A DNA stretch of 14,993 bases, taken from IMG/VR virus record IMGVR_UViG_2563366958_000011. One strand, 5' to 3'. The notes beneath the pieces are model-generated. The model saw only the letters and a list, made by a program, of their open reading frames with translations, was not told the DNA's origin and did not search any database. The DNA comes from a virus. Its lineage: Duplodnaviria; Heunggongvirae; Uroviricota; Caudoviricetes. Of this stretch, positions 2,891 through 14,993 are shown in pieces. A program made the position numbers and the translations under genes. How positions within the stretch are numbered: the first letter of the stretch is position 1; every line of letters starts with the position of its first letter.

Positions 2891-3220
2891 GGATTGCTAT
2901 TTAACAGTTAGCCATGGAGAAGGGCAATCGCTCTTTTAACAACGAAGATGGAATCTTCTACGCAGCTGAAAAGCTGGATGCTCTTTAACAGCCTTTGGTG
3001 CTTTTCTGATGCAGGAAAGAATAGGGATACATGCACCTTTACAATGCATGTAATGATTCATCCATGAGGCTGCGGAGCGCTGACAAAGCGCAATTGCTCT
3101 TTAACATTGATGTGGGCGGGATGGTTCGTCCCGCAGTGACCGATAGATTTCTATCGGGAAACATACAATGATTCAAATATGAATCTACGGCGCTGACAAA
3201 GCGCAATTGCTCTCTTGCCT
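2891..3220. repeat. intergenic repeat/palindrome array: five GCTnTTTAACA-like motifs, an imperfect ~111-bp tandem duplication and several perfect palindromes
   Basis: Motifs near 2891-2907, 2922-2943, 2977-2993, 3088-3109 and 3199-3220. Exact 24-mer gcgctgacaaagcgcaattgctct at 3077-3100 and 3188-3211. Palindromes gcggga-N7-tcccgc at 3115-3133, cgataga-ttt-ctatcg region at 3140-3157, gattca-aata-tgaatc at 3170-3185. Confidence 0.6.
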
Positions 3221-3475
3221 GCCCACCATGCCCTGAAAAAGGGCGTTCTTTAAAACTACTGGATGTCACGCCTAATAGCGTGATCCTGCCGAAATGCAGG
3301 GTAGCTCTACCCTTGTGGAGCAAACAAACCAAAACAATCTGACTATCTTTTATAAAAGACCGCAATATGTTTTTCATATTGTGGTCTTTGGCGTATTCGA
3401 CATTTGACGCAAATAAAACTCTCGCCATTCGTTGCAGGAGGGGGTTATTGCGTCATTAGTACAGGATATTAATAA

Positions 3476-5131: not shown

Positions 5132-5598
5132 CCGTCCAGAAGAAGATATTTTCACTGGCTGGTATGTCACCAAAATCCAGCAATATGACAGCAAAGTCTG
5201 GCATTAATACAGCAGATACAAGCAAAGTTTATCATTTTCTGGTGGTAGGAGCGGATGCCTTAACTATGTCAGAAATTACGGTCGATGGTGTTAGCGTTGA
5301 GAAGGTCAGCGGCTGCGCCAGAGAATTTCTGGTCGTAGATGGCTTTCTCTGCTCGCGTAGTGACTCCACAAAAACCTTCGTCCATACGCGCGACGTTAAC
5401 GAAATGAGCGCGATGTATTGTGCATCTGGTGCTTCCAATACTGAGTTTTCGGAGTCCATAAAAAAGAGCTTGCCGTTATGCGGCAACACGGTTTATGGTT
5501 ATAAGGCACCTCATAAAACGGGTGCCGGGATTGGCGTCCTGAAAATTCTGAAGGCGACATATGACGCGCCGGGTGATGCTGCCAACTTACTGATTTAG
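5125..5598 (+). CDS. hypothetical protein; last 8 codons and stop are supplied by the IS1 left end, so the native 3' end is interrupted
   Basis: ATG 5125 with GGAGG at 5113-5117, coupled to the upstream gene (ATGCTAA). Frame enters IS1 at 5572 and terminates at the IS1 TAG (5596-5598). Native C-terminus unknown. Confidence 0.5.
5563..5571. repeat. IS1 target-site duplication, left copy (GACGCGCCG)
   Basis: The identical 9-mer recurs immediately after the IS1 right end at 6340-6348. Confidence 0.9.
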
Positions 5599-5626
5599 TG
5601 TATGATGGTGTTTTTGAGGTGCTCCA

Positions 5627-5902
5627 GTGGCTTCTGTTTCTATCAGCTGTCCCTCCTGTTCAGCTACTGACGGGGTGGTGCGTAACGGCAAAAGCACCGC
5701 CGGACATCAGCGCTATCTCTGCTCTCACTGCCGTAAAACATGGCAACTGCAGTTCACTTACACCGCTTCTCAACCCGGTACGCACCAGAAAATCATTGAT
5801 ATGGCCATGAATGGCGTTGGATGCCGGGCAACAGCCCGCATTATGGGCGTTGGCCTCAACACGATTTTACGTCACTTAAAAAACTCAGGCCGCAGTCGGT
5901 AA
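5627..5902 (+). CDS. insA: IS1 InsA (zinc-finger transposition regulator), 91 aa
   Basis: [22 protein letters not shown]...CSHC zinc-finger N-terminus; canonical InsA. Confidence 0.95.
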
Positions 5903-6324
5903 CCTCGCGCATACAGCCGGGCAGTGACGTCATCGTCTGCGCGGAAATGGACGAACAGTGGGGCTATGTCGGGGCTAAATCGCGCCAGCGCTGGCTGTTT
6001 TACGCGTATGACAGGCTCCGGAAGACGGTTGTTGCGCACGTATTCGGTGAACGCACTATGGCGACGCTGGGGCGTCTTATGAGCCTGCTGTCACCCTTTG
6101 ACGTGGTGATATGGATGACGGATGGCTGGCCGCTGTATGAATCCCGCCTGAAGGGAAAGCTGCACGTAATCAGCAAGCGATATACGCAGCGAATTGAGCG
6201 GCATAACCTGAATCTGAGGCAGCACCTGGCACGGCTGGGACGGAAGTCGCTGTCGTTCTCAAAATCGGTGGAGCTGCATGACAAAGTCATCGGGCATTAT
6301 CTGAACATAAAACACTATCAATAA
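5821..6324 (+). CDS. insB: IS1 InsB frame (transposase made as an InsAB' fusion by -1 frameshift at the A6C site)
   Basis: ORF in the -1 frame relative to insA, overlapping its 3' end. AAAAAAC slippery motif at 5878-5884. Coordinates are from the first in-frame ATG of the ORF track. Confidence 0.9.
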
Positions 6325-6339
6325 GTTGGAGTCATTACC

Positions 6340-6348
6340 GACGCGCCG
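6340..6348. repeat. IS1 target-site duplication, right copy (GACGCGCCG)
   Basis: Exact 9-bp match to 5563-5571, directly abutting the IS1 right terminus. Confidence 0.9.
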
Positions 6349-6361
6349 AGCGTCTTTTTTT
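6340..6361 (+). terminator. putative intrinsic terminator (GACGC-GCCGA-GCGTC hairpin plus T7), into whose stem IS1 inserted
   Basis: 5-bp stem, 5-nt loop, then TTTTTTT at 6355-6361. The TSD equals the 5' arm and loop of the hairpin. The stem is short, so confidence is modest. Confidence 0.4.
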
Positions 6362-6369
6362 ATGTCGTA

Positions 6370-6408
6370 GGTCTGACTCACCCATTTTTTGGGCGTTGGT
6401 GTATAATC
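6370..6408 (+). promoter_or_regulatory. putative promoter of the small-gene/primase operon (consensus -10 TATAAT at 6402-6407)
   Basis: Perfect TATAAT hexamer about 160 nt upstream of the first SD-preceded gene. No convincing -35 identified. Confidence 0.35.
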
Positions 6409-6563
6409 CAGCGCCTTTGTCAATCAATGGTGGCTCAGGCGGGGGCTTCTTCGGAAGCGCCGGTATCCTTCAGAGCCGGTTACGCCAACCCTGTCTGGGC
6501 TACCACCAGCGAAATTGGCGTTTCCGGTGGTAGCGTAACCTGCTATCTGAAGGAGGCTGCCAC
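6409..6563 (+). promoter_or_regulatory. structured 5' leader (possible regulatory RNA) upstream of the first small gene
   Basis: Hairpin gcttc-UUCG-gaagc at 6445-6458 and a 9-bp stem gctaccacc/ggtggtagc at 6499-6507 and 6526-6534 with an 18-nt loop. Ends at the AGGAGG SD (6551-6556). Confidence 0.3.
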
Positions 6564-6758
6564 ATGCTGGCTACTACCCCTACCCAAAAACCGCAATTTA
6601 TCTGGATTATCGCCGCAGTTCGCCGCGATTGCCCGACAATTACCGCCAAAATTCATCATATTGCTGCCGAGTCTGAACGCGATGCTCGCCGTTCTCTGGT
6701 GCGCGATCACGTCTGCTTTTTTGCTGGTCGTATCCGCATGGAGGTGGCACATGATTAA
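6564..6758 (+). CDS. small hypothetical protein, 64 aa (first gene of coupled operon)
   Basis: AGGAGG 7 nt upstream of ATG 6564. Stop overlaps the next start (ATGATTAA). Confidence 0.65.
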   Translation: MLATTPTQKPQFIWIIAAVRRDCPTITAKIHHIAAESERDARRSLVRDHVCFFAGRIRMEVAHD

Positions 6759-6969
6759 AACCTACGATGTGCATATGGATCCCCTCGAACGCACAAGCCA
6801 GATCATCACACTGACAGAAGTGATTAACGACATTCTGGTGAGCAACTCTCCCTCACGAGACGAAAGGCTGAAGGCGTTACTCGCGATATTGGATCTCGCC
6901 GTTCGTGACGTTCATTTCCTGCTGGAAGGTGGCGAAATGCCAGGAAAAACGGGGGCAACCAATGAATAA
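6751..6969 (+). CDS. small hypothetical protein, 72 aa
   Basis: GGAGG at 6740-6744, 6 nt before ATG 6751. This is the C-terminal part of track ORF 6427-6969; the short start is preferred because of the SD and the start/stop overlap. Confidence 0.65.
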   Translation: MIKTYDVHMDPLERTSQIITLTEVINDILVSNSPSRDERLKALLAILDLAVRDVHFLLEGGEMPGKTGATNE

Positions 6970-7156
6970 CTCAATTAATACCCCTCGCCTTACGTCCGCA
7001 CTTCAATTAATCGAGCAAGCAGCGGCTGTCCTGGTTGCTGTCAGTCTTTCGGCTGAAGAAATGGACGCTGCTGATGTCGTGGATGCGATTAAAGCGTGCT
7101 CATCTTTGGTTAACGATGCCCGTGCCGAGCTGGTAATTCTTGGGGGTGAAAAATGA
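6962..7156 (+). CDS. small hypothetical protein, 64 aa
   Basis: ATG 6962 overlaps the upstream stop (ATGAATAA). An internal start of track ORF 6905-7156 was chosen to avoid a 60-nt overlap with the upstream gene. Confidence 0.6.
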   Translation: MNNSINTPRLTSALQLIEQAAAVLVAVSLSAEEMDAADVVDAIKACSSLVNDARAELVILGGEK

Positions 7157-7416
7157 ATATCAACTTAATTTATCGTCATCCGTGTGAGCTGGAAATTGAA
7201 TCATTGCTGGGGCGTGAAGAGCCATATCCAGACTCATTCACTCCCGCAGATTGCGCGACTGAACGGCTTACCAGAGCGCGCACAGGTCTGGTTCATGTGA
7301 TGAATGAGATTGTTCCCTCGGTGGGAGGGGAACAGGCGACAGTAATCAATAGCTGGCTACAAAAAGTTACCTCCCTGATAGATATCGGTTTAATCGATGT
7401 GGAGAGTGCGAAATGA
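7153..7416 (+). CDS. hypothetical protein, 87 aa
   Basis: ATGA start/stop overlap with the upstream gene. Uninterrupted ORF. Confidence 0.65.
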   Translation: MNINLIYRHPCELEIESLLGREEPYPDSFTPADCATERLTRARTGLVHVMNEIVPSVGGEQATVINSWLQKVTSLIDIGLIDVESAK

Positions 7417-7634
7417 CCAACATCCAGCTCATTGAAGCGCAATGTCGCATCGAACAGGTTCAGACTGTTTTAGGGTTCTGGCTTGAAGGGGCCAGCCCCA
7501 GCAACAGAGACAAGTTAATGATTGGCGCGGTTATGTCACTGCTCAATGGCGTACCAGAAGCTATTCAGGAAGCGGACGAATTGTTGGGCAAATATGAGTT
7601 ACAGAATCATTCAGGCGAGGCGAAACATGAATAA
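7413..7634 (+). CDS. hypothetical protein, 73 aa
   Basis: ATGA overlap with the upstream gene. Uninterrupted ORF. Confidence 0.65.
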   Translation: MTNIQLIEAQCRIEQVQTVLGFWLEGASPSNRDKLMIGAVMSLLNGVPEAIQEADELLGKYELQNHSGEAKHE

Positions 7635-8229
7635 TTTCTTAACTTTCCATGCAGAAGCAACGCCTGACGGCGTAAACATCATGTACCGCAGCAACGATGG
7701 CATGACAGAACGCGTTGAGGCCGTCTCATATATTGATGCCGTAAATCGTCTGGATGCCGGGGATTATGACGATAAACCAGATGAAGGTATGTCAATACAT
7801 CTCGCTATTGCCGATGGCGGCAACCAGGGATATTTCGATTACACATCACAGCATAACGTCATTATGTGGAGATGGCTGATCGCAACAGTATTCATGCTGG
7901 AAATGAGAGAGGAAAACGGCACTGTCAGCATCATTGATGATACTGGCAATCCTTCCGAAGTGGCTGTTTATTCCAACGGCATCGTCGCCATGCCGCTGTA
8001 TCCAGTAGCAGAGCGCCTCGCTATGGCAAACAACATTGAGGGCGCGATGATAGAACGTTTTGGCATCGAGTCTGGCACAGAACGCGCCATCATTTTCTAC
8101 AGAGCCATGATGGATGTGGAACAAGGAGCACTGACTCCATTTGGTCGTGAAACGCTTGCTGAACTTCACAACAGCTTTATAGCTGAACTGAATGAAAACG
8201 GCATGCCAGCGGAACCAGTGACGCACTGA
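7627..8229 (+). CDS. hypothetical protein, 200 aa
   Basis: ATG 7627 overlaps the upstream stop (ATGAATAA). The longer track ORF from 7522 would overlap the previous gene by 112 nt, so the coupled start is preferred. Confidence 0.6.
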   Translation: MNNFLTFHAEATPDGVNIMYRSNDGMTERVEAVSYIDAVNRLDAGDYDDKPDEGMSIHLAIADGGNQGYFDYTSQHNVIMWRWLIATVFMLEMREENGTVSIIDDTGNPSEVAVYSNGIVAMPLYPVAERLAMANNIEGAMIERFGIESGTERAIIFYRAMMDVEQGALTPFGRETLAELHNSFIAELNENGMPAEPVTH

Positions 8230-8239
8230 GGATGGAGCC

Positions 8240-8581
8240 ATGATTACTAAAAATTTCCGACTGAATGCGCTGGCAAATAAGTATGCGTCGGCACTGTATA
8301 ACCACATTACCTCCACCAGCGGCGGGGACTATTTCATGGTTGATGCGGACGGCGAGGCCGTACGTGTGGAAATCGTCAATGGAGTAAAAGGCGTTCGCAG
8401 CCTGATCGATAGCTACACACTGGCAGCCATGAAAGTGTTCTACCCGCAGTGGGAAACCGTGGGGATCGAGCTTCTTGAGCGTTGCGTCACTAAGGACGGA
8501 TTGACTGACGTCGGGCGTGAGATATGGCAAAGCATGGTTAATGACATGGGCGCAACTGTAGCGGGAGGTTCTCATGCGTGA
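8240..8581 (+). CDS. hypothetical protein, 113 aa
   Basis: GAGG at 8228-8231, 8 nt before ATG 8240. Stop overlaps the next start. Confidence 0.65.
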   Translation: MITKNFRLNALANKYASALYNHITSTSGGDYFMVDADGEAVRVEIVNGVKGVRSLIDSYTLAAMKVFYPQWETVGIELLERCVTKDGLTDVGREIWQSMVNDMGATVAGGSHA

Positions 8582-8945
8582 AAATGCAGAAATGGCGCTT
8601 AGCTCCGCAATCGGAGAGCAGGTGGCAAAGATTGCTGGTGCTGTGTGGATTCATAACCTTCATTCTACTGGTGAAGAGAAAATGGCAATTCAGACGCCAG
8701 AGGGACGCACCATTACTACATCTCTGAAGCCGTCAGATGTTTGTGATCTGATTTGCGCATTCATGTACCCAGCAATGAGGACTGTCCACGGCGATAAGTG
8801 GAAACTTGCGACAACCGCTGAATTTGATATGTGGCTAAACAATGATGGCATGCTGACTGATTACGGAATAACCAAGTGGCAGATGCTGGTTAGCCATATC
8901 GCAAACGCTATAGACCACGTGGGGTACGGTGATGCGAAACATTGA
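8574..8945 (+). CDS. hypothetical protein, 123 aa
   Basis: ATGCGTGA overlap with the upstream gene. 3' end overlaps the primase start by 14-17 nt. Confidence 0.65.
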   Translation: MRENAEMALSSAIGEQVAKIAGAVWIHNLHSTGEEKMAIQTPEGRTITTSLKPSDVCDLICAFMYPAMRTVHGDKWKLATTAEFDMWLNNDGMLTDYGITKWQMLVSHIANAIDHVGYGDAKH

Positions 8946-11688
8946 TCTTATCCGTCAGGTTATCAGTGCGTCTGAAAACAACTGGCCTCATGTGCTGGGC
9001 TGCCTGAACATAAATGTCCCTGACTCTCCGCGCCGTCATGCTCCCTGCCCTGCATGTGGGGGCAAAGATCGATTCCGGTTCGATGACAACGGGCGCGGTA
9101 GCTTCATCTGTAATCAGTGCGGCGCTGGTGATGGGCTGGATTTAATTAAACGCGTAAATAACTGCGACACAACAGAGGCGGCGCTTCTTGCCGCTGATGT
9201 TCTGGGTATTGATTACCGGACAACGGAAACACCAGAAGCCACCAGCCAGAAACGGGAACAACTGGAAACCGAGCGCCAGCGACGCGAACAGGAGCGCCTG
9301 AAAAGGGCAGAGAAGGACGAACAACAAAGACGGGATACGTTTTCCCGTCAGTTTGATGACATGCGCAGAAAGGCTGTAAACGGCAAATCTGATTATCTGG
9401 TTGCGAAAGGGGTAGGTGATTTTACATTCCCCGTGTTGCCCGATGGATCTCTGTTGCTGGCGCTGGTGGATAAATCCGGCGCAGTCACAGCAGCACAGAC
9501 TATTACATCACATGGTGAAAAAAGACTCCTGACAGGTTCAGCAAAGCGGGGGGCATATCACGCCATAAACGCGCCAGAAACAACACAGAGCATCTTAATC
9601 GCAGAAGGGCTGGCAACGGCATTATCTGCCCATTTAATTCGTCCAGAGGCGCTGACAGTGGCGGCGATTGATGCCGGGAACCTGTTATATGTCCCCCAGG
9701 TACTGCGGGATAAATTTCCTTCAGCACAAATCATCATTGCTGCGGATAACGACCACAGCGAAGGAAGACAAAACACGGGGAGAATAGCAGCAGAAAAAGC
9801 AGCTTTATCTGTTTCTGGATGGGTGGCATTACCCCCGACAGATCACAAAGCAGACTGGAATGATTACCACCAAAAACACGGCATTAAATGCGCCACAGAA
9901 GCGTTCAATAAGTCAATGTACCAACCACAGGGTAATGGCGTGAAACATGAGCCACAGACCATTGAGGGAAGCGATTTTAAGGTTATGGATACCGACCCAC
10001 TGAAACCAAGAATAGAAAGCCGCGAGGATGGTATTTATTGGGTATCTCCGAGAGCTGACAGCCAGAGTGGAGAAATCATCAATAACGAAAGCTGGTTATG
10101 TTCTCCGTTAAGCGTTATCGGTACTGGCAGAGACGATAAAGACCAGTATCTCATTCTTCGCTGGCTGTCGTTTGGTTCTGAAACGCCGACAACCGCTGCC
10201 ATTCCACTGGCTGATATTGGTGAACGTGAAGGATGGCGCACACTTAAAGCTGGTGGGGTAAATGTCACGACCAAAAGCAGCCTCAGAGCAATACTGGCAG
10301 ACTGGCTACAACGCAGTGGCTCTCGTGAATTGTGGCGTGTTGCTCATGCCACTGGCTGGCAATGCGGAGCGTACATCATGCCTGATGGGGAAATCATCGG
10401 AACACCTGAAAATCCTGTGCTGTTCAGCGGGAGAAGCTCAGCCGCAGCCGGATATACCGTCTCAGGGAGCGCGAAAAGCTGGCGTGATAACGTGGCGCGT
10501 CTGGCCTTTGGTAACTATTCAATGATGACCGGGATCGGCGCAGCACTGGCAGCGCCATTGATTGGGCTGGTGGGCGCTGACGGGTTCGGCATTCATTTCT
10601 ATGAGCAGTCGAGCGCAGGTAAGACCACCACGGCAAACGTGGCGAGCAGCTTATACGGCAACCCTGATTTACTGCGGCTGACGTGGTACGGAACCGCGCT
10701 GGGGCTGGCAAATGAGGCCGCCGCCCACAATGACGGACTAATGCCGCTTGATGAAGTTGGTCAGGGCGCTGATCCTGTCAGCGTTTCACAGTCTGCCTAT
10801 GCGTTATTTAACGGTGTAGGGAAACTGCAAGGCGCTAAAGATGGTGGAAACCGGGATCTAAAACGCTGGCGTACAGTGGCAATCAGCACCGGAGAAATGG
10901 ATTTAGAAACATTTATCGCTACTTCCGGGCGAAAAACCAAAGCCGGGCAACTGGTGCGACTGCTGAATATTCCGTTGAGTAAAGCAGTACGCTTTCACGA
11001 TTACCAGAACGGAAAACAGCACGCAGACGCACTGAAAGACGCTTACCAGCATCACCACGGCGCGTCCGGGCGTGAGTGGATTAAATGGCTGGCAGACCAC
11101 CAGCAACAGGCTATTAAAACCGTTCGTGACTGCGAAAGCAGATGGAGAAGCCTGATCCCATCCGATTATGGTGAGCAGGTTCACCGTGTAGCCGCGCGAT
11201 TTGCCATTCTGGAGGCCGCATTGTTGTTAGGCGAGGTTGTAACAGGCTGGGATGCTCAGACATGCCGTGATGCGATACAGCACAGCTATAACGCATGGTT
11301 GCGCGAGTTCGGCACAGGTAACAAAGAGCATCAGCAGATTATTGAACAAACGGAGGCATTTCTTAATGCCTATGGGCTTAGCCGTTTTGCACCATTTCCA
11401 TACAGCCCGGCAGATTTGCCCATCAAAGATTTAGCCGGATACCGTCAGCGTGGAGAACATGACGAAAGCCCAATGATTTTCTACACATTCCCGGCCACAT
11501 TTGAAAAGGAGATCGCATGTGGTTTCAACGCAAAACAGTTTGCTGAAGTGTTGAAAAAAGCCGGGATGCTAACCCCACCAAACAGCGGTCGTGGATACCA
11601 AAGAAAATCACCACGTATTCAGGGACGACAAATAAACGTTTATGTACTCAATTACCAGCCAGGAGATTATAACTCATCTGAAGAATGA
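8929..11688 (+). CDS. DNA primase-helicase (P4 alpha-like): zinc-ribbon + TOPRIM primase + Walker-type NTPase, 919 aa
   Basis: N-terminal CPACGG...RFRFDD...CNQCG zinc ribbon. TOPRIM-like motifs ILIAEG and IIAADNDHSEG. C-terminal Walker A-like QSSAGKTT and Walker B-like MPLDEVGQ. Track start is GTG 8929; ATG 8932 is the likelier start. Confidence 0.9.
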   Translation: MMRNIDLIRQVISASENNWPHVLGCLNINVPDSPRRHAPCPACGGKDRFRFDDNGRGSFICNQCGAGDGLDLIKRVNNCDTTEAALLAADVLGIDYRTTETPEATSQKREQLETERQRREQERLKRAEKDEQQRRDTFSRQFDDMRRKAVNGKSDYLVAKGVGDFTFPVLPDGSLLLALVDKSGAVTAAQTITSHGEKRLLTGSAKRGAYHAINAPETTQSILIAEGLATALSAHLIRPEALTVAAIDAGNLLYVPQVLRDKFPSAQIIIAADNDHSEGRQNTGRIAAEKAALSVSGWVALPPTDHKADWNDYHQKHGIKCATEAFNKSMYQPQGNGVKHEPQTIEGSDFKVMDTDPLKPRIESREDGIYWVSPRADSQSGEIINNESWLCSPLSVIGTGRDDKDQYLILRWLSFGSETPTTAAIPLADIGEREGWRTLKAGGVNVTTKSSLRAILADWLQRSGSRELWRVAHATGWQCGAYIMPDGEIIGTPENPVLFSGRSSAAAGYTVSGSAKSWRDNVARLAFGNYSMMTGIGAALAAPLIGLVGADGFGIHFYEQSSAGKTTTANVASSLYGNPDLLRLTWYGTALGLANEAAAHNDGLMPLDEVGQGADPVSVSQSAYALFNGVGKLQGAKDGGNRDLKRWRTVAISTGEMDLETFIATSGRKTKAGQLVRLLNIPLSKAVRFHDYQNGKQHADALKDAYQHHHGASGREWIKWLADHQQQAIKTVRDCESRWRSLIPSDYGEQVHRVAARFAILEAALLLGEVVTGWDAQTCRDAIQHSYNAWLREFGTGNKEHQQIIEQTEAFLNAYGLSRFAPFPYSPADLPIKDLAGYRQRGEHDESPMIFYTFPATFEKEIACGFNAKQFAEVLKKAGMLTPPNSGRGYQRKSPRIQGRQINVYVLNYQPGDYNSSEE

Positions 11689-11711
11689 GCTTCTTCATGT
11701 GCGTAGAAAAG

Positions 11712-11826
11712 GTGTTGGTTCAGTTGGTTCAGTTGGTTCAATTTGTAAAGAGTATTGTTTTATAAGGATTTTATTCTTTTTATTGAACCAACACTGAACC
11801 AACAACACGGTATTTTGAACCAACAC
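11712..11826. repeat. iteron cluster, putative replication origin: three tandem GTTGGTTCA and three inverted TGAACCAAC(AC) copies flanking a 43-bp AT-rich spacer
   Basis: Direct 9-mers at 11714-11722, 11723-11731, 11732-11740. Inverted copies at 11784-11792, 11795-11803, 11816-11824. AT-rich spacer 11741-11783. Immediately 3' of the primase-helicase gene. Confidence 0.6.
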
Positions 11827-12144
11827 AATGTGACTGAATTGATGCGCACAACACCTGGCTGGCATCAGAGAGTGTTTTACGAGACTTTCGTAAAATCCTG
11901 TGTACAAGGGCGTGACGTTTTTGAAAGTGAGCACTACGAAATTTTCGTAGTTCAGAAAACAGCCTCTGAGAAGTTGTTATGCCTGTTCAGCAAACCATCC
12001 GCATAGCTGATCGCGAATCAAATTACCAATGGAGCCAGAAGCAAGGGCAGAACTGAAAAGCGCCTGCCGTGAAGAGTAATGCGACACCATAAATATAGTT
12101 TTTAGAGTCCATAAAAAACCTGTCAAAACCTGACACACAGAACG

Positions 12145-12178
12145 ATGCCACCAGCTACTGAGCGGTGGCATTTTTTTT
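12145..12178 (+). terminator. rho-independent terminator (7-bp GC-rich stem, extended by 3 inner pairs, followed by T8)
   Basis: tgccacc (12146-12152) pairs with ggtggca (12164-12170); inner pairs 12154-12156 with 12161-12163. TTTTTTTT at 12171-12178. Confidence 0.7.
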
Positions 12179-12197
12179 GTGCTATTTGTTTCATATT

Positions 12198-12246
12198 TTG
12201 CAATTACGATGATGAATATTGCGATTTGTGAAACTATAATAACTGT
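12198..12246 (+). promoter_or_regulatory. putative promoter/operator of the small RHH-like gene (-10 TATAAT at 12235-12240; inverted repeat GCAAT-N13-ATTGC at 12200-12222)
   Basis: Consensus -10 hexamer about 35 nt upstream of the ATG. The adjacent inverted repeat could be an operator. Confidence 0.35.
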
Positions 12247-12273
12247 TGTTTTATACAGTTCTAAGGGGGCGTT

Positions 12274-12435
12274 ATGGCTATTTCAGTAAAGCCGGTATTG
12301 ATAAGTGAGAAGCAAATGGAAGCGATAAAGAAAATTCAGGAAGAGCAGCGTAAAAAATCAGGAATTGGAGTAGCGCCAACTCTGCATGAAATTGCACGAG
12401 GGTTAATAGATAAGGCGCTGGCAGGCTGTATGTGA
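12274..12435 (+). CDS. small protein, 53 aa, predicted ribbon-helix-helix-like DNA-binding fold (below the ORF-track size cutoff)
   Basis: AAGGGGG SD at 12263-12269, ATG 12274, stop 12433-12435. MAISVKPVLISEKQMEAIKKIQEEQ...APTLHEIARGLIDKAL shows a strand-helix-helix pattern; the fold assignment is inferred. Confidence 0.55.
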   Translation: MAISVKPVLISEKQMEAIKKIQEEQRKKSGIGVAPTLHEIARGLIDKALAGCM

Positions 12436-12451
12436 AAATGGATGGCATCGC

Positions 12452-12808
12452 ATGGAACTAAAATTTATTGATAACCCTGTGCGATTACAGGCCTTTCTTA
12501 ACGAGCCAGGCAATACCGAAAATATTGTTGAGCCGGGGCACACGTACTACATCAAGCCTGATGCGGTATATCTCGGCATCTACGAAGGATTAGTGCTGGC
12601 TGGCGTTCATGAAGTGCGTAACTTCTGGCATAGCGTTGTTGAATGCCATGCGGTGTACGACCCCGGATTCCGTGGTGAATATGCACTGCAAGGACATCGA
12701 TTATTCTGCAAATGGCTTCTCGAAAACTCACCATTCCTTAACAGCATTACCATGGTTCCTGACACCACGAAATACGGACGGGCAATTATCCGTTTGCTTG
12801 GCGGGTGA
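12452..12808 (+). CDS. hypothetical protein, 3' end truncated by IS1 copy 2 (stop codon lies inside the IS1 left end)
   Basis: ORF begins 17 nt after the RHH-like gene. TGA at 12806-12808 belongs to the IS1 terminus GGTGATG, so the native C-terminus is missing. Confidence 0.55.
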   Translation: MELKFIDNPVRLQAFLNEPGNTENIVEPGHTYYIKPDAVYLGIYEGLVLAGVHEVRNFWHSVVECHAVYDPGFRGEYALQGHRLFCKWLLENSPFLNSITMVPDTTKYGRAIIRLLGG

Positions 12809-12858
12809 TGCTGCCAACTTACTGATTTAGTGTATGATGGTGTTTTTGAGGTGCTCCA

Positions 12859-13134
12859 GTGGCTTCTGTTTCTATCAGCTGTCCCTCCTGTTCAGCTACT
12901 GACGGGGTGGTGCGTAACGGCAAAAGCACCGCCGGACATCAGCGCTATCTCTGCTCTCACTGCCGTAAAACATGGCAACTGCAGTTCACTTACACCGCTT
13001 CTCAACCCGGTACGCACCAGAAAATCATTGATATGGCCATGAATGGCGTTGGATGCCGGGCAACAGCCCGCATTATGGGCGTTGGCCTCAACACGATTTT
13101 ACGTCACTTAAAAAACTCAGGCCGCAGTCGGTAA
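12859..13134 (+). CDS. insA: IS1 InsA, copy 2
   Basis: Translation identical to copy 1 InsA. Confidence 0.95.
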
Positions 13135-13556
13135 CCTCGCGCATACAGCCGGGCAGTGACGTCATCGTCTGCGCGGAAATGGACGAACAGTGGGGCTATG
13201 TCGGGGCTAAATCGCGCCAGCGCTGGCTGTTTTACGCGTATGACAGGCTCCGGAAGACGGTTGTTGCGCACGTATTCGGTGAACGCACTATGGCGACGCT
13301 GGGGCGTCTTATGAGCCTGCTGTCACCCTTTGACGTGGTGATATGGATGACGGATGGCTGGCCGCTGTATGAATCCCGCCTGAAGGGAAAGCTGCACGTA
13401 ATCAGCAAGCGATATACGCAGCGAATTGAGCGGCATAACCTGAATCTGAGGCAGCACCTGGCACGGCTGGGACGGAAGTCGCTGTCGTTCTCAAAATCGG
13501 TGGAGCTGCATGACAAAGTCATCGGGCATTATCTGAACATAAAACACTATCAATAA
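13053..13556 (+). CDS. insB: IS1 InsB frame, copy 2
   Basis: Translation identical to copy 1 InsB. Confidence 0.9.
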
Positions 13557-13566
13557 GTTGGAGTCA

Positions 13567-14316
13567 TTACCCAAATGCCGCAGCCCCCTCTGGATCCGCC
13601 TTTAACATTTGCGCGTATTGATTGTAATTCTGCATTGCGGCTGTTGGTGCATATGCTGACGTTAACGCATTTGCTCGGCTAATATCCTGCCCTCTCGCCT
13701 GAAGTGCTTCTCCGGCTTGATTGCTGCGGATCGTCTCTGCCAACTTGCCACGCTCAATATCCCGACCTTCCATTCGATCTTTGATATCGAAGTACTTCTC
13801 ATGACCGAGAGAAAACAGTGCCATACTACCAGCAAGCCGCTGGAATCCCTGTGGATCATTAACATGCATTTCGGCAACAGACTCAGGAGAAATTCCCAAA
13901 CGACGCATTTCATCTTCGTTATCTGCTATGAATTTTCCAAATGCCCCAGTTCCGAGCGAAGATGCGATTTGAGCACTAGTCGCAAGATGACCAATAGAAT
14001 TTCTCTGGTCGTCATCAATAAAGCCCATCCCTTTCTGAACGCTTTCAAATTCTTCTGGATACTCAGAAATAAGACTGCGCATTTTGTTTCTGTCTCCAGA
14101 CTCAAAAGCCCCGGCATATGCTTTCTGAAACTCTGCTTTACGCTGTTGTTGACGTGCCTGCTGATTAATCTCAGCAACGCCTCTTAGCCCCTGTAGCGCC
14201 ATTAAACCTACGTTTGGCTGCTGCTGATACTGCACAGGCTGAGGAACGGAAGAACGAGGAGCATTATCATTTTGCGGTGCCATGCTAGGCAGCCCGCCAA
14301 GTTGCCATGTCGCCAT
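13567..14316 (-). CDS. hypothetical Gln/Pro-rich protein, 249 aa; stop codon supplied by the IS1 right terminus, so probably C-terminally truncated
   Basis: Minus-strand ORF whose TAA (13567-13569) lies inside the IS1 end sequence. Start overlaps the upstream gene by 1 nt (TAATG), indicating an operon. Confidence 0.6.
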   Translation of the reverse strand: MATWQLGGLPSMAPQNDNAPRSSVPQPVQYQQQPNVGLMALQGLRGVAEINQQARQQQRKAEFQKAYAGAFESGDRNKMRSLISEYPEEFESVQKGMGFIDDDQRNSIGHLATSAQIASSLGTGAFGKFIADNEDEMRRLGISPESVAEMHVNDPQGFQRLAGSMALFSLGHEKYFDIKDRMEGRDIERGKLAETIRSNQAGEALQARGQDISRANALTSAYAPTAAMQNYNQYAQMLKADPEGAAAFG

Positions 14317-14993
14317 TAGAATCCAAGCCCCCCAACAAGACCAATAAGCCCACCACCAATAGCCCCGGCGACATTACCTATACCCGGAACAACGGAACCA
14401 AGTTGCGCACCCGCTAAAGCGCCTGATGCCGCCCCACCAATACCACGCGCAAGACTGGATGGCTGCTGCGCCTGACCTGCACGAATAGCGCCAAGCCCCT
14501 GCAAGAGTTGTCCGGTATTATTGGCGTAGTTTTGCCCTGCTGTTGCCTGCCCTGATGCCGCATTCATCCCGACATTTAGCAGGTTTCCATAATTTTGCAT
14601 TTGCCCACTGAGCCAATTGTTATAAAGCATGGGCGCAATGGAAGATAACTGGTTACTGGTAGCTGTTGAGCCAAGCCCCCCGGTAGCTTCTGCTGAGACA
14701 AGGTTCTGATAACGGGCCTGATCTGCCTGTGTTTTATATAAACCAGAACCAAAGAAATCATTCGCGGCTTTATTCTGCCCTTCCAGAGTCATCAGTCCTT
14801 GTAGTTGTTGTAAAGCAGGCAATCCGACTTCTGCATACGGCTTGAGATTATTCATCACCGTATTCCACTGCTCGCGCTGCAAATCAATTGCCTGCTGCTG
14901 GGCCTTCGCCTGAGCTTTAGAGGCACCACCATCACCGCCTTTTTCGTATACGGCACGATTGAGATGTTTATAAGCTATATGGGTAATTAACAT
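14316..14993 (-). CDS. hypothetical Gln/Asn/Gly-rich protein with a C-terminal glycine-zipper hydrophobic segment; N-terminus may lie beyond the window edge
   Basis: Minus-strand ORF reaching the window end. C-terminus GIGGAASGALAGAQLGSVVPGIGNVAGAIGGGLIGLVGGLGF looks like a membrane-inserting glycine zipper. Possibly a phage ejection or structural protein, or a bacteriocin-like protein; family not recognised. Confidence 0.55.
   Translation of the reverse strand: MLITHIAYKHLNRAVYEKGGDGGASKAQAKAQQQAIDLQREQWNTVMNNLKPYAEVGLPALQQLQGLMTLEGQNKAANDFFGSGLYKTQADQARYQNLVSAEATGGLGSTATSNQLSSIAPMLYNNWLSGQMQNYGNLLNVGMNAASGQATAGQNYANNTGQLLQGLGAIRAGQAQQPSSLARGIGGAASGALAGAQLGSVVPGIGNVAGAIGGGLIGLVGGLGF

Follow-up and report, generated by a model that had tools for sequence, protein, structure and literature searches.

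The closest described relative of the locus reported here is the immunity region of satellite phage P4, in which, as far as the accounts in PMC4825925 and PMC3632133 go, the CI RNA pairs with the seqA and seqC sequences and thereby causes transcription termination; by the summary in PMC4825925, CI terminates transcription prematurely and makes the host immune to superinfection. The precursors of CI and of the C4 RNA of phages P1 and P7 are substrates of RNase P (PMC5499578). C4 is a homologue of CI, and the IsrK RNA is a structural homologue of the P4 seqA RNA (PMC3632133, PMC4825925).

The DNA analysed here is a stretch of 14,993 nucleotides, referred to throughout as the window. An initial annotation, made from its letters, had marked positions 6370-6563 as a promoter and structured leader ahead of a replication operon, and had proposed an RNA regulator analogous to P4 CI. 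On the sequence evidence given below the leader is a known P4-type RNA immunity system, recognised by an existing Rfam model, and not a new regulator. With a probability of about 0.9, we explain the locus as a whole as the immunity locus of a P4-like satellite or integrative island at a tRNA-Thr gene (thrW), built on a CI/C4 antisense RNA and split by an IS1 element.

The CI/C4-type RNA

When the window was scanned against Rfam at gathering threshold, two matches were returned, a tRNA at 1369-1441 and the C4 antisense RNA family (RF01695, which includes P4 CI) at 6423-6510 on the + strand. The initial annotation had suggested a scan with just this model; with 79.9 bits (gathering score 45; E = 1e-14) the match is full-length, covering model positions 1-87 of 87. 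Readings of the leader as tRNA-like or as a riboswitch were rejected, no Rfam family except C4 being above threshold in the region. By blastn, window positions 6424-6585 align with the P4 cI region at ~71% identity over ~160 nt; the 'immunity regions' of SfV and N15 are matched as well, as are other prophages. The locus is common, with a match in 1,146 of the 5,426 complete E. coli genomes. The RNA and its parts are as follows.

6423-6510, + strand: CI/C4-family antisense RNA gene (RF01695 match, P4 cI homology, fold and covariation)
6428-6444 / 6489-6505, + strand: closing stem of CI (C4 fold)
6445-6458, + strand: hairpin 1 of CI, with a UUCG loop (C4 fold)
6459-6463 / 6476-6480, + strand: hairpin 2 of CI, bearing the recognition loop a' (C4 fold)
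6466-6474, + strand: recognition loop a' (UCCUUCAGA), the loop of hairpin 2
6482-6488, + strand: single-stranded segment b' (ACGCCAA) (C4 fold)
6506-6508, + strand: 3' CCA of CI, nearly invariant in alignment A1

The 88-nt core, 6423-6510, has a folding energy of -46.4 kcal/mol, compared with -30.4 +/- 3.4 kcal/mol for dinucleotide shuffles (z = -4.8; 0 of 200 shuffles as stable), and its minimum free energy structure is the C4 fold, a long closing stem around two hairpins. The UUCG-tetraloop hairpin noticed at the outset is present at 6445-6458, as GCUUC-UUCG-GAAGC. Two copies of GCCGGT, which had been taken for a direct repeat, are likewise found, at 6459-6464 and 6475-6480, but they are the two arms of the antisense hairpin, able to pair with each other because CCGG is palindromic.

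Relatives were collected in two sets, 120 loci from different Enterobacterales species obtained with a 19-nt anchor and 80 viral-contig loci obtained with the Icd-like protein; 83 diverse sequences form alignment A1, on which covariation was counted. In the CI fold 99.7% of the cells of this alignment are paired, where shuffles give 88.5% and slid registers 31-50%, and 14 of the 27 pairs have changed on both sides. Covariation of the stems in homologous islands, on which the original proposal had been staked, is thus present for the CI fold, as it is for the 9-bp hairpin described below. Since the Rfam scan is positive, the DNA homology is 71% and the stem changes are compensatory, we conclude that the element is homologous to P4 CI, which goes beyond the analogy first suggested.

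Recognition modules and their target boxes

Complements of a' and of b' lie both upstream and downstream of CI, giving four boxes. These boxes, and the hairpin that presents one of them, are listed here.

5531-5537, + strand: upstream target b1 (TTGGCGT), in a hairpin loop, complement of b'
5547-5554, + strand: upstream target a1 (TCTGAAGG), complement of a'
6499-6534, + strand: downstream hairpin of 9 bp with an 18-nt loop presenting b2 (covariation)
6515-6521, + strand: target b2 (TTGGCGT), in the loop of the downstream hairpin, complement of b'
6546-6554, + strand: target a2 (TCTGAAGGA), the seqC / a2 equivalent, over the Shine-Dalgarno sequence

Throughout the 15-kb window TCTGAAGG occurs only at 5547 and 6546, both of them predicted sites. 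The calculated duplex energies are -14.2 kcal/mol for a'-a2 (reached by 1 of 500 shuffles), -12.2 kcal/mol for a'-a1 (2 of 500), and -10.0 kcal/mol for both b'-b2 (20 of 500) and b'-b1 (14 of 500). The Shine-Dalgarno sequence AGGAGG, correctly identified in the initial annotation, lies at 6551-6556, 7 nt ahead of the first-gene ATG at 6564; as with seqB and seqC in the P4-type system, CI thus complements a downstream target, a2, that overlaps the translation start region of the first gene.

The same pairing is found across the family. Exact complements of at least 7 nt were sought in the flanks of 113 distinct loci, drawn from many Enterobacterales species, and they recur at fixed positions. 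The complement of a' was present in the downstream flank (position +45 after the 3' arm) in 89% of cases for the locus's own flank, compared with 12% for the flanks of other loci, and that of b' (position +14 after the 3' arm) in 98% compared with 5%. The corresponding values in the upstream flank are 76% compared with 13% for a' (position -102) and 99% compared with 12% for b' (position -118). These 113 loci carry 52 different hairpin-2 loops and 26 different 3' single-stranded segments, and among 157 distinct loci there are 70 a types and 30 b types in 91 combinations. A candidate b target at GCGTAACC, 6533-6540, an 8-nt complement of CI positions 6478-6485, was rejected; its pairing is not kept in relatives, the conserved b2 being at 6515-6521.

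The downstream hairpin is the 9-bp stem of the initial annotation, with arms at 6499-6507 and 6526-6534 and a loop of 18 nt. In alignment A1 (n=83) 95.4% of its cells are paired and six of its nine pairs have changed on both sides; P4, for example, has CTATCGCC/GGCGATAG where the window has the compensated arms CTACCACC/GGTGGTAG. This hairpin and the CI closing stem are mutually exclusive helices, the left arm of the one coinciding with the 3' arm of the other. Co-variation links columns 79-85 of the alignment both to the CI stem's 5' arm and to the downstream arm, and both of the exclusive helices are therefore under selection. Such dual selection would be expected of a purely cis-acting attenuator, in which the CI closing stem, the hairpin at 6499-6534 and a small hairpin at 6531-6545 act as a switch and no RNA acts in trans. 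Alternative helices fit precursor processing or target presentation equally well, however, and a cis switch leaves unexplained both the co-variation of a' and b' with boxes on either side, 30-120 nt away, and the homology to trans-acting CI/C4 RNAs. We regard it as very improbable, and prefer the reading of CI as an antisense RNA acting in trans.

The upstream leader

The structure ascribed to the leader is real, but 6370-6563 is only its distal half, and the unit reaches upstream to 5470. Overlooked in the initial annotation were the end of an IS1 element abutting at 6339 and the system's own terminator, a hairpin and T-run at 6340-6361. The upstream features are given below.

5470-5499, + strand: putative PLE-type leader promoter (-35 TTGCCG at 5470-5475, 18-nt spacer, -10 TATGGT at 5494-5499)
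5506-5571, + strand: 5' part of an IsrK / P4 'seqA'-type leader RNA, carrying b1 and a1 (partial isrK match)
5572-6339, + strand: IS1, 768 bp, a simple insertion with ends read directly, lying inside the t1 terminator hairpin
6340-6361, + strand: t1-type intrinsic terminator (GACGC-GCCGA-GCGTC then T7), the 3' end of the IsrK/seqA-type RNA

At the place equivalent to 5470-5499 P4 has TTGCCT-18-TATAGT, and in relatives the pattern cTTGCc...TATAGT/TATGGT recurs at a constant distance ahead of the b1/a1 boxes. Likeness to a -10 element, scored over 157 distinct loci, is highest in the interval -160 to -142, at 31%. These observations suggest that 5470-5499 acts as the conserved promoter of the leader, which in intact copies lies ~155 nt upstream of the -10 element annotated at first.

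An E. coli relative that lacks the IS1 (L002) and is 99-100% identical shows how the unit is organised when whole. There the stretch running from the promoter as far as t1, at 6944-7021, matches the isrK family (RF01394) with 67.8 bits (GA 50), and the second target (seqA) is followed by t1 on the same transcript, upstream of CI. The order is the same in L002 and P4: promoter, small hairpin, b1 hairpin, a1, t1, spacer, CI, b2 hairpin, a2 and ORF. In the window the isrK scores of the 5' piece (42.3 bits) and the t1 piece (15.6 bits) both fall below GA 50, because IS1 interrupts the RNA; the weaker match, at 6253-6360, might be dismissed as noise, and is in fact the t1 half of the split RNA. Judged by these matches, the window holds a disrupted member of the IsrK / P4 seqA-type family.

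The t1 hairpin was detected by a terminator scan, matches the 3' part of the isrK model and is kept in relatives, and P4 has the same motif (gacgcgccacgcgtcttttttt). In the window it is intact at 6340-6361 because the target duplication of IS1 restores its left arm.

Coding potential of the leader

Annotation pipelines offer a different view of this region, as part of an 'Ash family protein' (PGAP; Pfam PF10554). An ORF does run across it (6427-6969 in the window, 355 aa in L002), the Pfam Phage_ASH model matches with 73.5 bits in the window and 117.5 bits in L002, and a CDS is annotated over it in hundreds of E. coli genomes. The Phage_ASH match nevertheless comprises exactly the promoter, the IsrK-like RNA, the spacer, the C4 RNA and the Shine-Dalgarno sequence (L002 nucleotides 6932-7258). 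Relatives differ by indels of 1, 2 and 4 nt inside the ORF, so its frame is not kept, its substitutions are compensatory for RNA helices, and PGAP itself flags it as partial or as a pseudogene in several genomes. The determinant of P4 cI is likewise an RNA (Forti et al. 1995, as cited in PMC5499578). A protein-coding role is therefore extremely improbable, and the 'ash family protein' CDS placed over the leader is almost certainly an artefact of translating an RNA.

Insertion of IS1

A target duplication of 9 bp, GACGCGCCG, flanks the IS1 element (5563-5571 and 6340-6348), and L002 is collinear with the window across the insertion site. None of the 5,426 complete E. coli genomes has the junction between IS1 and the leader, which was found in one IMG/VR contig that starts inside IS1.

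The promoter and the a1/b1 boxes are uncoupled from CI and the operon by IS1 in the window copy. The seqA-type parts b1, a1 and t1 are all present, and co-vary in relatives, but with IS1 between a1 and t1 the upstream boxes and the terminator have probably ceased to share one functional transcript. On the sequence, any remaining transcription of CI and the operon can come only from read-through out of IS1 or from a TATAAT at 6402 that is a -10 element only. Most likely, the replication operon is silent in this copy and expression of CI is reduced or lost. The insertion may even have rendered the whole unit non-functional in the source genome.

In that case the locus would be a dead relic there, with IS1 polarity and the intact t1 blocking transcription of CI and the operon, and with the RNA conserved only through recent descent. 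IS1 places the conserved promoter 777 bp from CI and regenerates t1 directly downstream of itself, as this reading supposes, and the segment shares 99.8% identity with the IS1-free relative, which makes the insertion recent, with decay not yet to be expected. A second, identical IS1 at 12804-13571, without a target duplication and with an inversion beyond it, points to ongoing IS1-driven rearrangement. Against this, CI could still be made from the TATAAT or by read-through out of IS1, and t1 of P4 is inefficient without CI-seqA pairing nearby. We hold it somewhat more probable that the copy is not dead, the odds being not far from even. The question concerns the activity of the window copy and leaves the identity of the element as a P4-type immunity locus untouched. 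What is new here is specific to this copy, namely that IS1 has cut the promoter and the upstream target off from CI and the replication operon.

The TATAAT box and the spacer hairpin

The consensus -10 of the initial annotation is read at 6402-6407, in the spacer between t1 and CI, where it forms part of a hairpin.

6392-6415, + strand: spacer hairpin GGCGTTGG / CCAGCGCC (arms 6392-6399 / 6408-6415), whose 8-nt loop contains TATAAT (6402-6407)

Because two loop lengths coexist, and a count in a single register gives 64.8% paired, this hairpin was evaluated by folding each sequence separately, with chimeras as the control. All 48 distinct spacers, with 43 distinct arm pairs, fold at -6 kcal/mol or below, with a mean of -12.9 kcal/mol compared with -8.8 kcal/mol for the chimeras. 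In 20 of the 48, all of the E. coli-type subfamily, the loop contains TATAAT. The box is hard to put down to chance, TATAATCC being kept with differing stem arms in viral-contig relatives. We consider the hairpin and its TATAAT to be a candidate secondary promoter or RNA-level element.

For the box as a promoter the evidence points both ways. Its hexamer is a perfect -10, yet the family's conserved promoter lies elsewhere, the box sits in a hairpin loop, and a sigma-70 scan finds no promoter at 6402, there being no -35, to which the silence of the scan is due, and no TGn extension. Should it function nonetheless, TATAAT would be a secondary promoter driving CI and the replication operon as a self-contained unit, with a start near 6414 and a 5' leader of ~13 nt for RNase P to remove. 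The retention of the box in those 20 spacers despite differing flanking arms is consistent with such a role. So is the -10-likeness at -34 to -16, which across the family exceeds, at 22%, the 0-10% background and is comparable with that of the upstream promoter interval, and in the IS1-split copy TATAAT is the sole candidate promoter left before CI. The hairpin co-varies, however, and its loop, although U/A-rich, is other than TATAAT in Serratia/Yersinia/Erwinia-type relatives, which suggests a constraint at the RNA level. In short-spacer relatives t1 lies directly before CI, with neither spacer hairpin nor TATAAT, and the family therefore does not need the box. In Gifsy-1, a homologous system, the C4-like RNA is moreover lost on deletion of the isrK promoter (PMC4825925). 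A search of the literature for transcripts or transcription starts of C4-type RNAs in E. coli islands turned up only work on P1. On this balance, we think a functional secondary promoter possible and rather doubtful.

A more speculative extension, which we think unlikely, is that in E. coli-type islands TATAAT is a dedicated, PLE-independent promoter for CI, that crippled islands act in trans as an 'immunity decoy', and that the freely reassorting a and b modules make up a combinatorial code. If this were true, the immunity RNA would be made even where, as with IS1 in the window, the main leader promoter has been disconnected; incoming satellites of the same specificity would still be met in trans by a crippled island; and free reassortment of a and b modules would provide a combinatorial immunity code across the Enterobacterales.

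Operon and island context

Two genes of the operon bear on its identity.

6564-6758, + strand: Icd-like cell-division inhibitor, 64 aa, first gene of the operon (NF033153, P4 homology)
8929-11688, + strand: primase/helicase, P4 alpha-like, distal gene of the operon (Pfam Zn_Ribbon_Prim, Toprim_3, DUF927)

The 64-aa ORF matches NCBIfam NF033153 (phage_ICD_like) with 71.7 bits (cut-off 25), is labelled 'Icd-like' by PGAP in relatives, and is 44% identical to the 65-aa ORF that follows cI in P4, which we take to be the kil of the P4 literature. The counterpart of the primase in L002 is annotated as a TOPRIM and DUF927 protein. The gene order is proA, tRNA-Thr, integrase, AlpA-type regulator, AntA/B-family protein, DUF4222 protein, leader, Icd-like ORF, small ORFs and the TOPRIM/DUF927 primase. 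The leader is thus that of an operon ending in an alpha-type primase, the location expected of a P4-type CI system, and since the primase belongs to the same operon the leader controls replication. In the collinear, IS1-free L002 no Sid, Delta or Psu is annotated between integrase and primase; because the island is then not a complete P4, the 'immunity' may serve only to keep a cryptic element silent.

Proposed mechanism

That the RNA belongs to the family and has its fold, that the four complementary boxes exist and co-vary, and the context of genes are established directly. The processing, stability, terminating action and immunity function of CI are those that homology with P4 CI and P1/P7 C4 would predict, and it is on this homology that the following model is based.

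In the intact layout a constitutive PLE-type promoter would give one leader transcript, containing in turn the IsrK/seqA-type RNA (b1, a1 and t1), CI, the b2 hairpin, a2 over the ribosome-binding site of the Icd/Kil-like gene, and the genes up to the primase. RNase P would release CI from this leader by a cut at the closing-stem base, followed by trimming of the 3' end near the CCA. The acceptor-like closing stem followed by CCA at 6506-6508 is consistent with cleavage by RNase P, resembling other hairpin substrates of that enzyme (PMC5499578). Once excised, CI would accumulate as a stable RNA of ~80 nt, and its a' (in the hairpin-2 loop) and b' would pair with a2 and b2 on new transcripts. 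This pairing would sequester the Shine-Dalgarno sequence, block translation of the first gene and end transcription prematurely, largely through Rho, ahead of the replication genes. By acting on a1 and b1, a' and b' would also enhance termination at t1, so that CI would regulate its own synthesis.

Since the stretch from CI to the first gene shows no intrinsic terminator, the termination step would depend on Rho or on an atypical site; P4 termination is likewise Rho-dependent or at an atypical site. The details of P4 immunity that concern t1, t4, timm and Rho are said to have been worked out by Briani and colleagues in 2000, by Sabbattini and colleagues in 1995 and by Forti and colleagues from 1995 to 2002. 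While the locus leaves knowledge of this mechanism unchanged, the matched variants of loop and target form a natural mutagenesis table that can be used to study the specificity of satellite immunity.

Comparison with known systems

The Salmonella RNAs IsrK and STnc1160 of Gifsy-1, and the IsrK-like/C4-like pairs of Salmonella P4-like prophages, resemble the present locus in that a terminated IsrK-type leader RNA lies directly upstream of a C4-type processed RNA. The IsrK-type RNA of the window differs in being split by IS1, with its 42.3-bit match remaining below threshold. The activating role of IsrK has been described for Gifsy-1.

The immI operon of P1 and P7 (c4-icd-ant, with a1/b1 and a2/b2) shares with the locus the Rfam family and clan of its antisense RNA, which is an RNase P substrate (PMC5499578). 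In both, two modules, a' and b', face one pair of targets upstream and one over the ribosome-binding site of an icd-type gene. The upstream region of the window also matches the Rfam c4-a1b1 motif weakly, at 19.1 bits, and likeness in sequence to P1-type targets stays below the threshold of that family. The controlled operon ends in an antirepressor in P1 and P7, whereas in the window it ends in a primase.

The likeness to CI, seqA, seqB and seqC of P4 is one of homologous sequence (71% over 160 nt) within the same Rfam family, and extends to the order of promoter, seqA boxes, t1, CI, hairpin, seqC over the Shine-Dalgarno sequence, Icd/Kil-like ORF and, eventually, primase. The t1 hairpins of the two are nearly identical (GACGCGCC..GCGTC then a T-run). 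The differences lie partly in layout. The spacer between t1 and CI is ~45 nt shorter in the window and carries the TATAAT hairpin, and the P4 model gives no account of this conserved box; the relative L002 is without annotated Sid, Delta and Psu between integrase and primase; and in the window copy IS1 parts the promoter and seqA from t1 and CI. The others are in the recognition modules, a' being UCCUUCAGA in the window and UCCUGUGAA in P4, and b' being ACGCCAA and UUCUCAC respectively, from which an immunity specificity distinct from that of P4 is predicted.

Annotation of the leader as a protein-coding gene

The region of the leader and its C4-family antisense RNA (CI) is spanned by an open reading frame in both the window and L002, the IS1-free, collinear E. 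coli relative:

window 6427-6969 (L002 6563-7630), open reading frame over the leader/CI region; PGAP 'ash family protein' CDS, Pfam PF10554 'Phage_ASH'

In L002 the span of the Pfam model (nt 6932-7258) coincides exactly with the promoter, the IsrK-like RNA, the spacer, the C4 RNA and the Shine-Dalgarno sequence, and alignment of the relatives reveals indels of 1, 2 and 4 nt within the stretch that the CDS covers. Phage_ASH, and with it the 'ash family protein', looks like an artefact of translating an RNA. The label is repeated across >1,000 E. coli annotations.

Diversity of the recognition modules

Among the relatives (L005-L204), the a and b recognition modules of CI (window 6466-6474 and 6482-6488) reassort: 157 distinct loci carry 70 a types and 30 b types in 91 combinations, and 14 different a loops are seen together with the b type of the window (TACGCCAA). 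The a loop varies rather little at its start (UCC), since these nucleotides base-pair with GGA in the Shine-Dalgarno sequence; the specificity of the loop lies in the ~6 nt that follow.

Alternative helices and flanking elements

From the CI closing stem up to the a2 box, the target of the a loop, the helices at window 6489-6545 form a mutually exclusive chain, in which the hairpin 6499-6507 / 6526-6534 shares nucleotides on its left with the CI closing stem and on its right with a third, small hairpin:

6489-6505, 3' arm of the CI closing stem
TAGC 6531-6534 / GCTA 6542-6545, third small hairpin, immediately before the a2 box

Seemingly compensatory variants of the third hairpin (AGCTG/CAGCT, GGGA/TCCC) were noted by eye in relatives, at a point where the alignment register is unreliable.

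Two further elements lie upstream:

6384-6399, T5-7 run (CCATTTTTTG), between the terminator t1 and the spacer hairpin
5470-5486, minus strand, terminator-like hairpin from the terminator scan, TTGCCGCATAACGGCAA then GCTCTTTTTT

The T5-7 run is nearly invariant in most long-spacer relatives, with columns 19-23 of the spacer alignment (A2) invariant; its candidate roles are a weak second terminator, a site for Hfq or RNase E, and an UP-like element serving the TATAAT box. The minus-strand hairpin overlaps the leader promoter at its -35; it may be a chance occurrence or act as a bidirectional element.

Island architecture

The interval between the integrase and AlpA-type genes contains ~240 bp (window 3003-3244) without counterpart in L002, where the gap in the blast alignment corresponds to 14 bp. 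The island has a variable spot here, for cargo or regulation, with two features overlapping or near it:

3039-3428, minus strand, 129-aa open reading frame, overlapped by the ~240-bp stretch
3331-3374, AT-rich palindrome, near that stretch

The right part of the window carries another insertion sequence:

12804-13571, second IS1 copy, with the sequence and orientation of the first

This copy has no target duplication, its flanks being different (TGCTTGGCG versus CAAATGCCG). Beyond it, window 13901-14993 is inverted relative to L002 (L002 14659-13567), and a DUF2824 gene is truncated, which indicates inversion or recombination mediated by IS1. Positions 6340-12803, comprising CI and the entire replication operon, are flanked by the two direct IS1 copies, an arrangement that resembles a composite transposon.
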